From a virus, in IMG/VR virus record IMGVR_UViG_3300050029_000114, positions 1-64,000 of that record: DNA of 64,000 bases. One strand, 5' to 3'. A model generated the notes under the pieces. That model did not search any database. It had not been told where the DNA came from and saw only the letters and a program-made list of their open reading frames with translations. The position numbers and the translations under genes were made by a program. Of this stretch, positions 3,099-48,845 are shown one piece after another; position 1 is the first letter of the stretch; each line of letters opens with the position of its first letter.

Positions 3099-3335
3099 CT
3101 AGTCTGCCAGGTAGGCGTGCAGCGCCGCTCTGATCGCCTTAGAGCGGGCTCTGGCGGCCTGCTGGTGGGCTGGGTCAGCGGGCTCCCAAGTGTCCGCTAG
3201 TTCGGTGCCGTGGAAGATCGGGGCGGGCTTGCGGAACCGGTCGCCCTCGGCCATGAGCGAGTCACGTAGCCGGTCCCAATCAAGCCATAGCTGGCGTTCC
3301 TCCGCTCGGCGGTTCCGGCGGTTTACGGGCGGCAA
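3099..3335 (-). CDS. Hypothetical protein
   Basis: 78-aa ORF in the co-directional run between terS and terL. Confidence 0.5.
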   Translation of the reverse strand: MPPVNRRNRRAEERQLWLDWDRLRDSLMAEGDRFRKPAPIFHGTELADTWEPADPAHQQAARARSKAIRAALHAYLAD

Positions 3336-22203: not shown

Positions 22204-22914
22204 TCATCTAGCCCGTCGCCGGTCCTGGCCGCTCAACACCACGGCGATCGCCTTGTCGCCCACGAGACGGGAGAATGTGCGGGCCCCGAGATGGGTTTCG
22301 AGGGCGGCCCGGTCGAGGTTGCTCGTGATGATCGTCGGCCGCTCGTCAAGCCACCGTCGGTTCACCACGGCGTACAACCGTTCGGCGGTCCACTCGGTGG
22401 CCCGTTCCCCGCCTACGTCGTCGATGACGAGCAGGTCTACCCCGGTCAGGGCGTCGAGTGCCCTCTCCGGGCCGTTGGGCCGTAGCTCCTCCAACATCTC
22501 GTCGATCGGCTTGAACGCGATCGTGGCGCCCTCGTCGCTGGCCGCCCGGATCGCAGCGCACGCCAGATGGCTTTTCCCGGTCCCGACGGGGCCGAGGATC
22601 ACGAGGTTCCTGCCTCCCGGGTCCGTCGACCAGTCGCCTATCCGCTCTCCGGGGATCAGCCCGACGAAGTCGGCCAGCCGGGCCTCGTGGAACCGGGGCG
22701 GTATCGCCCGCTCCCACCGGGCCCATGCGTTCCGCTCGTCGGCCTCCGCCCTGGCGGCCGCTCTGACCTCGGGGTCCATGCTGAGGGCCCTTAGCGTGAC
22801 CGGCTGGTCCGCGGCCGGGAGCGGGGGCTGTAGGGCCCCTCCACGGTCGGCTAGCTGCCGCTTCAGGTCGGCGATCAAGCTCGCCTGGCCGATGCGCTGC
22901 GGCTCGCCGCTCAT
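22204..22914 (-). CDS. DnaC/IstB-like AAA+ ATPase (helicase loader)
   Basis: GPVGTGKSHLA, LLVIDDVGGE, PTIITSN. Confidence 0.9.
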   Translation of the reverse strand: MSGEPQRIGQASLIADLKRQLADRGGALQPPLPAADQPVTLRALSMDPEVRAAARAEADERNAWARWERAIPPRFHEARLADFVGLIPGERIGDWSTDPGGRNLVILGPVGTGKSHLACAAIRAASDEGATIAFKPIDEMLEELRPNGPERALDALTGVDLLVIDDVGGERATEWTAERLYAVVNRRWLDERPTIITSNLDRAALETHLGARTFSRLVGDKAIAVVLSGQDRRRAR

Positions 22915-36657: not shown

Positions 36658-37806
36658 TCAGGTGCCCTTGTAGTTGAGAACCTGATGCAACGTGTGCTCG
36701 ATCGCGACGAGGTCCGCTTGGTCGGCCATCACCTGGTCGATCGACTTGTATGAATCGGGGTGTTCGTCGAGCAGCGCCTTCGCGTCTCCGTCATTCCACG
36801 CCCGGCCCTTCATCGCTGTCTCTAACGATTCGACGGTCAACGTCTTACGGGCCGCCGATCGGGACATGCGCCGTCCCGCACCATGTGAGCACGACTCGTA
36901 GCTGGCCGGATTCCCGAGCCCGCGGACAATGTAGCTCGACGTGCCCATCGAACCGGGGATCACGCCCTCGTCGCCGGTCCCGGCTTTGATCGCCCCTTTG
37001 CGGGTCAGCCACACGTTCCGGCCGTGGTGGTTCTCCATCTGCGTGAAGTTGTGATGGCAGTTGATGCGGCGTACCTCGTTGCCGACGCCGTGCTCCCGGT
37101 CAACGCCAACGAATCCCCATAGCTGGGTGAGAACGGCATCCATCATCGCGGCGCGGTTCCCTAGCGCGTACCGCTGCGCCCATTGCATGTCGCTGATGTA
37201 GGCGTCGAACTCGTGGGTTCCCTGGACGAGATAGGCAAGGTCGGGGTCGTCTAGCTCGATGAACCATTGGCGCATGAGCCGCTTCGCCCCGTCGATGTGC
37301 TTCTTGGCTAGCTGGTTGCCGATCCCTCTGCTACCGGAGTGGAGAACGACCCACACCCGGTCGCGTTCGTCGAGGCAGACCTCGACGAAATGGTTGCCGC
37401 TGCCCAAGCTGCCATATTGGTTGGCGGCGGTCGCTGCCTCTTTCTGGCTGAAGTGCGCTGGTATCTCGACCCCGCGCGCTGATGCGTGGCCCTTGCCTAC
37501 CCCGGCCGGTACAACCTCGGCGATCCACCCGTGGAGCGGGTCAAGGTTGTCGGGCAGGCCGTCGGCGACTAGGTCCGTCTCGACGGCGATCATGCCGCAG
37601 CCGATATCGACACCGACCGCTGCTGGGACGATCGCTCCTCGTGTCGGGATGACCGATCCGATGGTAGCTCCGATACCGATATGGGCGTCGGGCATGAGGG
37701 CAAGATGCCCGTCAATGAATGGCAGTCGGCTGGCTTTGGCTGCCTGCTCGATCGTGGCGGCCTCGATGTCCGAGCCCCACGCCAGCACGTTACCGATCTT
37801 CTGCAC
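36658..37806 (-). CDS. rtcB: RtcB RNA 2',3'-cyclic phosphate/5'-OH ligase
   Basis: LMPDAH.G, GVDIGCG, GSGNHF.E, LHSGSRG, HHN, RKGA, PGSMG, SHGAGR; GTG at 37806 after GAGAAAGG. Confidence 0.96.
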   Translation of the reverse strand: MQKIGNVLAWGSDIEAATIEQAAKASRLPFIDGHLALMPDAHIGIGATIGSVIPTRGAIVPAAVGVDIGCGMIAVETDLVADGLPDNLDPLHGWIAEVVPAGVGKGHASARGVEIPAHFSQKEAATAANQYGSLGSGNHFVEVCLDERDRVWVVLHSGSRGIGNQLAKKHIDGAKRLMRQWFIELDDPDLAYLVQGTHEFDAYISDMQWAQRYALGNRAAMMDAVLTQLWGFVGVDREHGVGNEVRRINCHHNFTQMENHHGRNVWLTRKGAIKAGTGDEGVIPGSMGTSSYIVRGLGNPASYESCSHGAGRRMSRSAARKTLTVESLETAMKGRAWNDGDAKALLDEHPDSYKSIDQVMADQADLVAIEHTLHQVLNYKGT

Positions 37807-37828: not shown

Positions 37829-37971
37829 TGGCGGGAGCTAGGAGTAGGCGTGTAGAGACGCCTCGTTCTTAGGCCACGGTCTAGTTGTCGAACACAAACC
37901 CGACAGCTACGACTCGCCCGCTCGGTATGCAACCTCCTACTAGGTACCGGACTGTGGCCTCCTAGCTCCAC
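37829..37971 (-). ncRNA. Unidentified structured RNA or leader upstream of rtcB
   Basis: 11-bp terminal stem GGAGCUAGGAG/CUCCUAGCUCC enclosing four further stems; starts ~7 nt after a TATAGT -10. Confidence 0.7.
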
Positions 37972-37989
37972 GCGCCGAACTATAGCGCG

Positions 37990-38994
37990 CTAGGGGCCGA
38001 CGTGCGCCCTGATCGCCTCTGCGGCCCTCTGTGCCGCTTGCCCGTCCGTTGCGACGTAAACGGTGCGGACCATCTCCTCGCGGGCTGTGCGGACCTCTGG
38101 CGGATCGCTGAGGGCAATCTCGACGGCCCGGACTAGGTGCTCAGGGTCGGATGCCCCGACCTGGCCGCGCGGCCAGTCCCAAAACCGGCCGCCATGCTGC
38201 ACGTCCCGCCGGTACCACGGGGCGTTCAACCACACGAGCGGGATGCCCAAGCTCGCCGCCTCCGGCAGAAGACTCGTGTTGTCGCCCACCAACACCGAGG
38301 CCCGGGCGAACACGTCGTCCACGTCGGGAACTGTCTCGACGCCGATCGCCTGCCACCGCTGCTCGATCTTCCGCCATAGGCGCGGGTGGCCGTGCCCGAT
38401 CACCTTGAACCGGTCCGCCAACGCCGGGAGGGCGTCGTCGTAGTGGCGCCACGCCCCGATCGTCTCCGGTATCTTCCTCGCCCCGAACCCGTGGAACGTG
38501 ACCGCCACCGTCGGCACTACCTCGCCCAACCCTGACGGCTTCAGCTTCCCGTCGTGCCAGCGGTCCAGGCGCGGGCAGCCGACCGCCACCGCCGGGGTTT
38601 CCGGGTACTCGTCCCGCCACCGGTCGGCGACCGCCTCCGATGGGCACAAGAAGAGGGCGGTCCCGTCGTGGCCTCCGCTGCCGCTGTAGCTCGTGTCGCC
38701 CGCGGTGTTCGGGTCGCCGTCGTAGCTCTGCCCGGCGCCGTGCTCGACGTAGACGGTGCGCCGCCCGGCTCGCTCGACGGTCGTCTGATCCATGATCCCC
38801 GCTACGATCACCGCTGGGCCTAGCCCGTGGGGCGCGCCCCACTCGACCCGGTCCTGCACCCATTCGGGCGGCTCGACACTGGCGAACTGGCCCGCCAGGT
38901 AGATCGTGCCCCGCTCCCCCATATCCAGGGCCCTCCAGATCGGCTCGATATGGGCCAGGTAGTGGGTCATCGTGGCGTACACGTCGACTGTCAT
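37990..38994 (-). CDS. GT-B fold glycosyltransferase / TagF-like transferase
   Basis: VEHGAG, VGCPRLD, HGHP, VLVGDNTSL..EAA.LG.P motifs. Confidence 0.7.
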   Translation of the reverse strand: MTVDVYATMTHYLAHIEPIWRALDMGERGTIYLAGQFASVEPPEWVQDRVEWGAPHGLGPAVIVAGIMDQTTVERAGRRTVYVEHGAGQSYDGDPNTAGDTSYSGSGGHDGTALFLCPSEAVADRWRDEYPETPAVAVGCPRLDRWHDGKLKPSGLGEVVPTVAVTFHGFGARKIPETIGAWRHYDDALPALADRFKVIGHGHPRLWRKIEQRWQAIGVETVPDVDDVFARASVLVGDNTSLLPEAASLGIPLVWLNAPWYRRDVQHGGRFWDWPRGQVGASDPEHLVRAVEIALSDPPEVRTAREEMVRTVYVATDGQAAQRAAEAIRAHVGP

Positions 38995-47969: not shown

Positions 47970-48845
47970 CTAGTTAGCTCCGGCGCGTCGCACCCGGCGG
48001 TGTAGGTCCGGGCTCATCACGCTCGCCCGGCGCCGCAAGTTGTGCGGGTTAACGCTCGACAGGAACAGGTCCGTCAGGTAGAGGCCCGTCCGGCCCTTAT
48101 CCAAGAACGCCCACGGATCGAGAACGATAGCCGTCACGCCCTGGCGGGTGATCTGCGTCACCCGTTGCGGCAACCGGCATTTCCCCACCATCGACGGCGT
48201 GAGAGCGAGAGCCAGTTCGCAAGCAATCTCGGCGCACGCCCGCACTCCGCTCCGGGGCGGCATCTGCCCGTAGTTGACCACGACCTCCCACGTCAACGGC
48301 TGCGACGAATCCAAGTCCATGCGCTGGTAAGCGGGCCACCCCGGGTTCTGGCCTGTCTTGGGGTCGGCCAGCCGCACCAGCCAGCGGTTGTCGTCCACCC
48401 GGTATGTCGACGGGTCGACGGTCACCCCGTCGATCGTCATCGACTGGACAGAGGACACCGGATAGACGCCCAACGTGACCTCGTACACGGGCGCTGTCGC
48501 CGGGCCGCCCCGCTCCTCGGTGTTCACCCCCGAGTAGATCATCGCAGCGTTGAATCCCTGCAAGCCGCCCGTGAAATACCCGAACGGCCACAACGGGTAG
48601 ATCGGGCGCCCGTGATCACGGGTCAACGACCGGGGGTATGGGCGCACCACGTCCTGGCAGGAACCGGCCCACCGCTGCCCGGATAGCTCGAACAGGATGT
48701 CGCTCGCGGCCTGGAGGCAGTCCTCCATGAGTGCCAGGTCGAACGAAACGTTCGAGCACGGCTCGCAGATGTCGTCGGGGCCCGCCCACGGCGAACAGGT
48801 GCCAGCGCATGGCACTCCGGCCCCGGTTTGGACTACGAAAGACAC
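47970..48845 (-). CDS. Head-to-tail adaptor
   Basis: ASDILFELSG.RW.G.C; CRLPQRVTQITRQGV...GRTGL...D.F...NP. Confidence 0.75.
   Translation of the reverse strand: MSFVVQTGAGVPCAGTCSPWAGPDDICEPCSNVSFDLALMEDCLQAASDILFELSGQRWAGSCQDVVRPYPRSLTRDHGRPIYPLWPFGYFTGGLQGFNAAMIYSGVNTEERGGPATAPVYEVTLGVYPVSSVQSMTIDGVTVDPSTYRVDDNRWLVRLADPKTGQNPGWPAYQRMDLDSSQPLTWEVVVNYGQMPPRSGVRACAEIACELALALTPSMVGKCRLPQRVTQITRQGVTAIVLDPWAFLDKGRTGLYLTDLFLSSVNPHNLRRRASVMSPDLHRRVRRAGAN

Follow-up and report, generated by a model that had tools for sequence, protein, structure and literature searches.

A structured RNA in the gap ahead of rtcB

The first 64,000 nucleotides (nt) of the IMG/VR virus record IMGVR_UViG_3300050029_000114 (hereafter referred to as the window) are part of an 86-kb, 97%-complete phage genome and encode the RNA ligase RtcB on the minus strand. 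Between the stop codon (TAG, 37992–37990) of an open reading frame (ORF) of 334 amino acids (aa) and the start codon of rtcB (GTG, 37806) lies a gap of 183 nt, which harbors a genuine, intricately folded RNA of ~136 bases. A preliminary description based on the nucleotide sequence had already placed a structured RNA with several stems, so far unannotated and preceded by a plausible −10 box, directly ahead of rtcB, which the present analysis supports. The element extends on the minus strand from 37969 to 37834 (136 nt including both strands of its closing stem, P1) and is recognized as a class A member of an RNA superfamily by the covariance model R1 (145.6 bits; E ~1e-33), which finds a single copy in the entire phage genome. 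The minimum free energy of a 151-nt stretch covering the element is −64 kcal/mol (z = −2.6 relative to dinucleotide shuffles), and one of 200 shuffles folds equally well.

The adjacent rtcB gene (36658–37806, minus strand; 382 aa; Pfam RtcB, 3.4e-110) starts 27 nt beyond the end of P1 and has the same length and start as its homologs. The closest homologs begin at the position equivalent to 37806, right after a short spacer, and directly follow the preceding gene. The preliminary description had considered a translation of rtcB from the GTG at 37971, which would run through the RNA, as a finding that would speak against its proposal. However, this open frame is not coding: the G+C content at third codon positions is only 0.51 in the 55-codon extension, whereas rtcB reaches 0.80 and the ORF upstream 0.90. 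Moreover, 16 of the 34 class A relatives of the element have stop codons in all three sense frames, which argues against a coding function.

P1 is formed by GGAGCUAGGAG (37969–37959) and CUCCUAGCUCC (37844–37834), comprises 11 base pairs (bp) in the window, and may be extended by three further pairs (GCG 37973–37971 with CGC 37833–37831, with U37970 bulged). The −10-like hexamer TATAGT (37984–37979, read directly from the minus strand) precedes the 11-bp stem by 9 nt and the extended stem by 5 nt. P1 leads into a three-way junction with two arms. The first is P2, whose 5′ strand (37958–37946; GCCAC, bulged A37953, GUCCGGU) pairs with 37885–37873 (which includes GAC.GUGGC) and encloses an inner domain consisting of the hairpin P3 (37945–37933; stem ACCU/AGGU, loop AGUAGG), the nearly invariant, single-stranded segment J3/4 (37932–37914; UUGCAUACCGAGCGGGCGA), and P4 (37913–37887), a 4-bp stem of GUCG (37913–37910) and CGAC (37890–37887) with an invariant 19-nt loop (UAGCUGUCGGGUUUGUGUU). 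The second arm, which is connected to P2 by the junction strand J2/5 (37872–37864; CUAAGAACG) and to P1 by the single base A37845, is the hairpin P5 (37863–37846; stem AGGCGU/ACGCCU, loop CUCUAC). The loops of P3 and P5 are complementary to each other, and the strands GUAGG (37940–37936) and UCUAC (37856–37852) form a predicted pseudoknot.

The comparative support for this fold comes from 34 distinct class A sequences, which were collected by core-pattern scans of IMG/VR and metagenome contigs and stem from loci with G+C contents of 35–71%. R1 was built on the curated class A structure, and covariation was counted on the resulting model-based alignment; because the alignments are model-fitted and the sequences are related, the counts that follow represent cells and not independent events. 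In total, 93.4% of the cells are paired, compared with 33–42% when the partners are slid by one to three columns, and compensatory changes occur in 29 of the 34 pairs. The fraction of paired cells is 96.7% in P1 (compensatory changes in 9/9 modeled pairs), 90.6% in P2 (12 bp and a bulge; 12/12), 93% in P3 (3/3 modeled pairs), and 100% in P4 (4/4). Structural conservation and covariation among homologous loci, on which the preliminary description had made its proposal depend, are thus evident.

Most but not all of the helices originally drawn for the element survive this comparison. P1, the helix GCCAC.GUC/GAC.GUGGC (now part of P2), and the AGGCGU/ACGCCU hairpin (P5) are present and comparatively supported. 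By contrast, the proposed helices CGGUA/UACCG and UAGCUGUCGG/UCGACAACUA, which are pairable in 82% of the cells, show no compensatory changes and perform no better than shuffles; one position of the former is unpairable in 12 of 15 relatives. They are replaced by an extension of P2 and by the fully paired and covarying P4, respectively. The sequence CGCCA, which follows P1 and precedes the ribosome-binding site of rtcB, is present as described, but its reading as a tRNA-like NCCA end is not supported. Most of the supposed tail is consumed by the possible extension of P1, and a CCA within 3 nt of P1 is found in only 16 of 85 members of the superfamily, i.e., it is weakly enriched but missing in most.

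The contact between the loops of P3 and P5, which had escaped the first reading, is a new tertiary contact of 5–6 bp that is supported by covariation. The kissing helix is 96.5% paired in the 34 sequences, whereas slid controls reach 19–70%, and the pair types change on both sides (C-G in 23 and U-A in 10 sequences at one position; A-U in 29, C-G in three, and G-C in one at the next). The pairing partners are (U)GCAGA in the P3 loop and UCUGC(G) in the P5 loop; variants are GUAGA/UCUAC (n = 10, including GUAGG/UCUAC in the window), GCCGA/UCGGC (n = 3), and GCGGA/UCCGC (n = 1). The covariation is compatible with kissing inside one molecule or between molecules and cannot tell which.

An invariant segment of the P4 loop, UAGCUGUCG (37909–37901), can alternatively pair with 37890–37882, which belongs to the 3′ strands of both P4 and P2. 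This alternative is pairable in 83% of the cells, mostly through tolerance of G-U pairs, and shows no two-sided covariation. P4 itself also shows transversion-type compensations among the 34 sequences, and a two-state switch based on the alternative pairing is conceivable but not supported.

A phage RNA superfamily and its invariant frame

Class A belongs, as a subclass, to a widespread and uncatalogued superfamily of phage RNAs. A search with the pattern TAAGAACGAGGC-N4-14-GCCTAC matched at least 100 viral stretches, nearly all of which share one architecture: P1, P2 enclosing an inner domain that differs between classes, the junction strand (Y)UAAGAACG, an AGGCG-loop-CGCCU hairpin, a single A, and the 3′ strand of P1. 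At least 85 distinct elements were extracted from IMG/VR, with lengths of 93–218 nt. P1 varies from 6 to 20 bp but has a common inner end, GGAG/CUCC, which is formed by 37962–37959 and 37844–37841 in the window; the four inner pairs remain G-C or A-U in 71–76 of 78 aligned members. The junction strand, the hairpin, and the single A, the pattern by which the family was collected, are likewise present in the window, where 37872–37845 reads CUAAGAACGAGGCGUCUCUACACGCCUA.

In the alignment of the 78 members, P1 is 96.6% and P2 is 86.2% paired, with compensatory changes in every pair, whereas P5 has five stem pairs that never vary among the 78 and a last pair that may be U-A, C-G, or A.G. The frame comprises ~35 nearly invariant bases, including J2/5, which is invariant throughout the superfamily. 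Several classes of inner domains are inserted into this frame, and R1 recognizes members of the superfamily through the frame alone. Its scores range from 85 to 153 bits in class A and from 16 to 76 bits in the other classes. The window also carries the two marks of class A, i.e., the invariant J3/4 motif (UGCAUACCGAGCGGGCGA) and the invariant P4 loop. In classes C and D, the inner domain contains a stretch complementary to the P5 loop; two-sided covariation of this contact is found only in class A. Judging from this complementarity, docking of the inner domain onto the P5 loop appears to be a general property of the superfamily.

The family is carried by ~35 records of cultured or deposited phages of Arthrobacter, Rhodococcus, and Microbacterium, and the site is unannotated in all but one of them. 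The exception is Arthrobacter phage QuinnAvery (PQ844483.1), where a full-length class D element (671–808; 95% identical to locus L044) lies under gene 3, annotated as a hypothetical protein, which is probably a spurious coding-sequence call over an RNA gene. The nearest cultured relative of the element in the window is found in Rhodococcus phage REQ2, the one relative detected by blastn among deposited phages, with 84% identity over exactly the element. Seventeen bacterial genomes, mostly of Actinomycetota, also carry the family, and these copies presumably reside in prophages. The carriers also include one metagenome-assembled genome of Flavobacterium and uncultured phages of low G+C content, and the phage loci of the superfamily range from 35 to 72% G+C.

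None of the families in Rfam 15 matches the element, neither in a search of the whole window at the gathering score nor in a search of the region at E values of up to 10; the preliminary description had named such a match as a refutation of novelty. A search of 17 related loci yielded only tRNAs and noise. No published description of the family was found; a catalogue of 8,495 anonymous candidate RNAs from IMG/VR (PMC10690425) may include it, but this was not checked. The element is not a tRNA (RF00005), since Rfam and ARAGORN find only a tRNA-Met (39668–39595) in the window. Nor do the 85 elements contain tRNA look-alike inserts or T-arm and D-arm motifs: at default settings, ARAGORN reports nothing in any of them, and the P5 loop (CUCUAC) is not a T-loop; relaxed settings return a few matches, partly on the wrong strand.

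The element had been likened to Y RNAs, and it might represent a divergent bacterial-type Y RNA (YrlA-like) that binds Ro60 and works together with RtcB. RNAs of the YrlA type are known neighbors of rtcB (rsr-yrlBA-rtcBA), occur in phages, and in at least one species are cut by tRNA-processing enzymes (PMC4201824; Chen et al. 2014). They resemble the element in being modular: the 5′ and 3′ ends are paired, the segment close to the closing stem is conserved, and another module varies. P2 of the element also contains the motif GUCCGG. However, YrlA RNAs are defined by the mimicry of T- and D-arms and by a neighboring Ro60/TROVE gene, and the element has neither. YrlA (RF02553) does not match the element at E values of up to 10 or in a search of the whole genome. 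TROVE (PF05731), whose absence had already been noted, is indeed missing from the 97%-complete genome, whereas control genomes did match, and it is not among the recurring neighbors of the family. The likeness to Y RNAs is therefore largely refuted. A weak match to the YrlA model elsewhere in the window (22418–22508, plus strand; 14 bits, E 0.22) is taken as noise because it is far below the family cut-off of 69 bits and sub-threshold matches occurred in 13 of 14 control genomes.

The closest counterparts in kind are species 1 and 2 of phage T4 (rnaC and rnaD), which are annotated as "small, stable RNA" in the T4 record. Like many members of the family, they are non-tRNA RNA genes (119–139 nt) located beside tRNA genes on the same strand; we know of no function assigned to them to date. 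Unlike the family, which lacks a T-arm, rnaC has a canonical one (GGUUCGAAUCC), and the T4 RNAs have neither the UAAGAACG/AGGCG frame nor any homology in sequence or structure. R1 found no match at E values of up to 1 in positions 69000–75000 of T4, and no shared motif was apparent by eye. Stable RNAs other than tRNAs in the tRNA clusters of phages are thus an old kind of thing; the fold and the frame are new.

In its architecture alone, the element resembles aptamers of the purine-riboswitch type, in which P1 likewise closes a three-way junction that contains invariant bases and a loop–loop contact, here a covarying one, ties the two arms together. The junction might thus form a pocket for a small molecule, such as a nucleotide signal, and the RNA might act in trans as its sponge or sensor. 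The conservation of the frame across very different hosts would be accounted for by a universal ligand. Nevertheless, such a role is quite unlikely. The element is much larger than these aptamers and has a class-specific inner domain, an expression platform and ligand-related genes nearby are lacking, and no riboswitch family matches. To our knowledge, there is also no precedent for an RNA sponge of this kind.

Genomic setting and the relation to tRNA genes and rtcB

A tRNA gene is located within 500 nt of 22 of the 85 elements, in every case on the same strand, and within 50 nt of 16. Several elements are flanked on both sides by tRNA genes at a distance of 1–6 nt, and further class A contigs repeat this pattern. 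In phage REQ2, an unannotated gap without rtcB nearby contains a tRNA gene, the element, and two tRNA-Ser genes, in this order and only a few bases apart. The flanking genes of REQ2 (NC_016652, ~48268–48662; positions 2910–2993, 3129–3217, and 3219–3304 of locus L001), which comprise one 84-nt tRNA called by Rfam and the two tRNA-Ser, are not annotated in the record. The sole tRNA gene in the window encodes a tRNA-Met (CAU; 39668–39595, minus strand; detected by ARAGORN and by the Rfam tRNA model with 67 bits) and lies 1.6 kb upstream of the RNA. Genes called as "tRNA-???" by ARAGORN lie near three elements, i.e., at positions 599–674 of L005 and 622–697 of L278 (85–87 nt upstream) and at positions 1964–2038 of L024 (98 nt downstream). 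The gene in L005 has a stated four-base anticodon (tacg), and these genes are odd tRNAs, possibly with anticodon loops of 8 nt.

Many elements also appear to have a start site of their own. In 31 of 84 members, P1 is preceded by a TANNNT hexamer that ends 4–12 nt before it, and the TATAGT in the window, which had been noted as a promoter motif, fits this arrangement. The density of the hexamers in this interval is 3.4 per position, compared with 0.1–0.8 at other offsets (~seven-fold). A scan for consensus promoters returned nothing because no −35 box matches. An intrinsic terminator directly after P1 was rejected as a feature of the family: a U-tract is present in 5 of 85 members, compared with 1–3 of 85 at control offsets, and is not general. 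Since no terminator-like site was found between the RNA and rtcB in the window, the two are probably co-transcribed.

The arrangement in the window, with the −10 box, the RNA, and the ribosome-binding site of rtcB following each other without a terminator and P1 ending 27 nt before the GTG at 37806, could be taken to indicate a cis-acting 5′ leader of the rtcB mRNA, i.e., a 5′ structure that is stabilizing, controls translation, or acts as a riboswitch to set the amount of RtcB. In line with such a role, a Shine–Dalgarno sequence and a start codon follow three other class A members at a distance of 15–25 nt and occur within 45 nt after 10 of the 85 members of the superfamily. Among the 80 closest loci of phage rtcB, taken with flanks of 2.5 kb, however, the element is missing from 77, and the three that carry it are the same contigs already recovered; the closest homologs directly follow the preceding gene. 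Moreover, the element lies 12–60 nt downstream of rtcB, on the same strand, in four other phages, and the many members flanked by tRNA genes at 1–6 nt have no space for an expression platform. In class C, the element is placed antisense in the interval between terminase and portal genes, and a purely cis-acting role is therefore excluded for the family. A leader function, which the preliminary description had listed among its possibilities, is thus disfavored and very unlikely, and a leader specific to rtcB is rejected.

The idea that the RNA belongs specifically to rtcB is likewise not supported, both because of the 77 loci without the element and because of the location of the REQ2 relative in a tRNA array. 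Searches with tblastn located rtcB in 7 of the 85 element loci and directly adjacent to the element in five; within class A, rtcB is nearby only in the window. Among 60 rtcB loci, 17 have a tRNA gene within 2.5 kb of rtcB. The link to rtcB is real but loose, and it may reflect a shared residence in islands of tRNA and RNA-repair genes. The loci of the closest RtcB relatives (L187 and L191; 72% identity) lack the element and have a tRNA-Met ~1.9 kb downstream of rtcB; the tRNA-Met of the window lies 1.8 kb upstream of rtcB, and the pairing of rtcB with an extra tRNA-Met may be noteworthy.

The direct adjacency of rtcB in five phages also bears on the possibility that the RNA is catalytic or a substrate of RtcB. 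The junction might be the core of a ribozyme that cuts the ends of the element, leaving a 5′-OH and a cyclic phosphate, or the ends juxtaposed by P1 might be joined by RtcB into a circle. RtcB circularizes ribozyme-cut RNAs, HDV-like "theta" ribozymes reportedly abut phage tRNAs, and the combination of an invariant junction, variable peripheral arms, and a loop–loop contact resembles the architecture of small self-cleaving ribozymes. Nevertheless, none of the self-cleaving ribozyme families in Rfam (including hammerhead, twister, pistol, hatchet, and HDV-like) matches at E values of up to 10, and junction strands of 0–1, 8–9, and 1 nt are at odds with a hammerhead core. A 5′ cut would be useless to members with their own promoter 4–12 nt upstream, rtcB is not near most members, and the ends produced by RNase P or RNase Z would be chemically unsuited to RtcB. 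We consider both versions unlikely; along with a decoy for host ribotoxins, they are nonetheless still candidates among the functions listed in the preliminary description.

The recurring neighbors of the element are limited to clusters of terminase, portal, HNH, and RtcB proteins. In the cultured phages REQ2, Kumotta, and Teacup, it is located near cos, HNH, and terminase genes, close to the genome ends. However, terminase or portal genes are present in 29 of the 85 loci, which is approximately the level expected by chance for loci of this length. On this ground, and on account of the antisense placement of class C, functions as a packaging RNA or as an antiterminator of the late operon were rejected. 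In two class C loci, the large terminase subunit seems to be encoded in two parts, an ATPase-like ORF and another ORF downstream of it (L103, 2733–4177, and L055, 1910–4179, both minus strand), with the RNA element located antisense in the gap before the portal gene. ORF calling in high-G+C loci is crude, and tallies of the strands of neighboring genes are noisy and were not relied on.

The location near terminase genes and genome ends is also relevant to an assembly of the RNA with itself, in which the loops of P3 and P5 would pair between molecules to form a ring or cage. Phi29 pRNA (RF00044) has a similar size and topology, in that a helix of the 5′ and 3′ ends, an arm whose loop engages in pairing, and a hairpin bearing the complementary loop surround a three-way junction; the loop complementarity of the element covaries. 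Like the element, GOLLD and ROOL are structured RNAs of phages and prophages, their function is unknown, and they often lie beside tRNA genes (PMC12286853). They are, however, several-fold larger and form large homo-oligomeric cages (PMC12286853), and neither has an Rfam match to the element. RF00044 gave no match in the genome, but the control genomes gave none either; in the search of the region against all Rfam families, it did not match at E values of up to 10. In addition, the carriers have ordinary terminases, the proximity to terminase and portal genes is close to chance, and docking within one molecule is geometrically plausible and simpler. Self-assembly is therefore highly improbable.

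The 334-aa ORF directly upstream of the RNA (38994–37990, minus strand) has no match in Pfam or PHROG, and further upstream an ORF of 1067 aa (43985–40782, minus strand) has only a C-terminal glycosyltransferase-like match (phrog_2170, 8e-9). Downstream of rtcB (36602–31793, minus strand), five small ORFs without a family match are followed by a tape-measure protein, so that rtcB and the RNA head an apparent block of tail genes, which is an unusual place for an RNA-repair gene.

A candidate trans-acting RNA of the tRNA world

The established fold, family, and genomic behavior of the element, together with its independence from rtcB, describe an independent, strand-specific, and heavily constrained RNA gene that occupies the niche of tRNA genes and, in this phage, heads the transcription unit of rtcB. 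The reading that we prefer, to which we assign a probability of ~0.45, is that 37969–37834 (minus strand) is the gene of a small, stable, and compact non-coding RNA of class A, which acts in trans in the world of tRNAs. Transcription would start a few bases before P1 from a −10 box belonging to the element, as is apparently the case with the TATAGT in the window. Alternatively, where the element is located inside a tRNA array at 1–6 nt from its neighbors, it would be freed by the enzymes that trim tRNAs. The 5′ end would thus lie at the base of P1, as a primary end after a −10 box and as a processed end after a tRNA. In the phage represented by the window, transcription probably continues into rtcB, so that the RNA and the RNA-repair ligase would be made together.

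The functional part of this proposal, for which the chances are about one in three, is that the RNA acts in trans as a mimic or scaffold of the tRNA world. The invariant frame would serve as a handle for a conserved partner, which may be a tRNA- or RNA-processing machine of the host or a protein of the phage, and the class-specific inner domain would be the specificity module. The setting would be the contest between host defenses that cut RNA and the supply and repair of tRNAs by the phage.

Several points weigh against the proposal of a trans-acting RNA of the tRNA world. The ends, stability, and processing of the transcript, its action in trans, and its partner are all inferred, and cutting of the element by RNase P is a guess. 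A look for sequencing runs that contain this phage yielded no RNA run, only a single DNA run from a peat metagenome, which may be its source. The variation of P1 from 6 to 20 bp and the lack of a T-loop, a D-arm, and a conserved CCA imply that the element is not a strict tRNA mimic like YrlA. The proximity of rtcB could stem merely from both genes living in tRNA islands, and the recurring neighbors of the element include no candidate for a partner protein. Furthermore, the ~35 invariant bases of the frame are conserved across loci of 35–72% G+C, and a core for catalysis or ligand binding would explain them as well as a protein handle would.

This last point leads to a bolder but doubtful possibility, namely that the invariant 35-base frame is the active core of a new functional class of RNA, shared by many unrelated phages and tuned by exchangeable inner domains. 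The core could then be catalytic, as a ribozyme, or could offer a high-affinity pocket, either to a nucleotide-type ligand or to a universal machine of the host. If the frame is indeed a catalytic or ligand-binding core, the superfamily would represent a new RNA class.

The tRNA islands of phages have been known for fifty years to hold stable non-tRNA RNAs without known function (RNA C and D of T4). The family described here is a widespread case of such island RNAs, present in phages and prophages of several genera of Actinomycetota, and has an unusually strong signature, with ~35 near-invariant bases, helices that all covary (less so in the case of P5, which is invariant), and a kissing contact backed by covariation. 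It explains conserved "empty" gaps in the annotation of deposited phages (dozens of genomes) and at least one protein call that is probably spurious (gene 3 of QuinnAvery). Its presence in phages that are easily grown on harmless hosts, such as the Arthrobacter phages Teacup and Kumotta, makes the role of such RNAs directly testable. The recurring company of tRNAs and RtcB ligase points to a contest between RNA-cutting defenses of the host and repair by the phage. If the RNAs indeed form a new functional class, they would represent an RNA-based weapon in the contest between phage and host over the integrity of tRNA and other RNA, rather than a passive, tRNA-like passenger.

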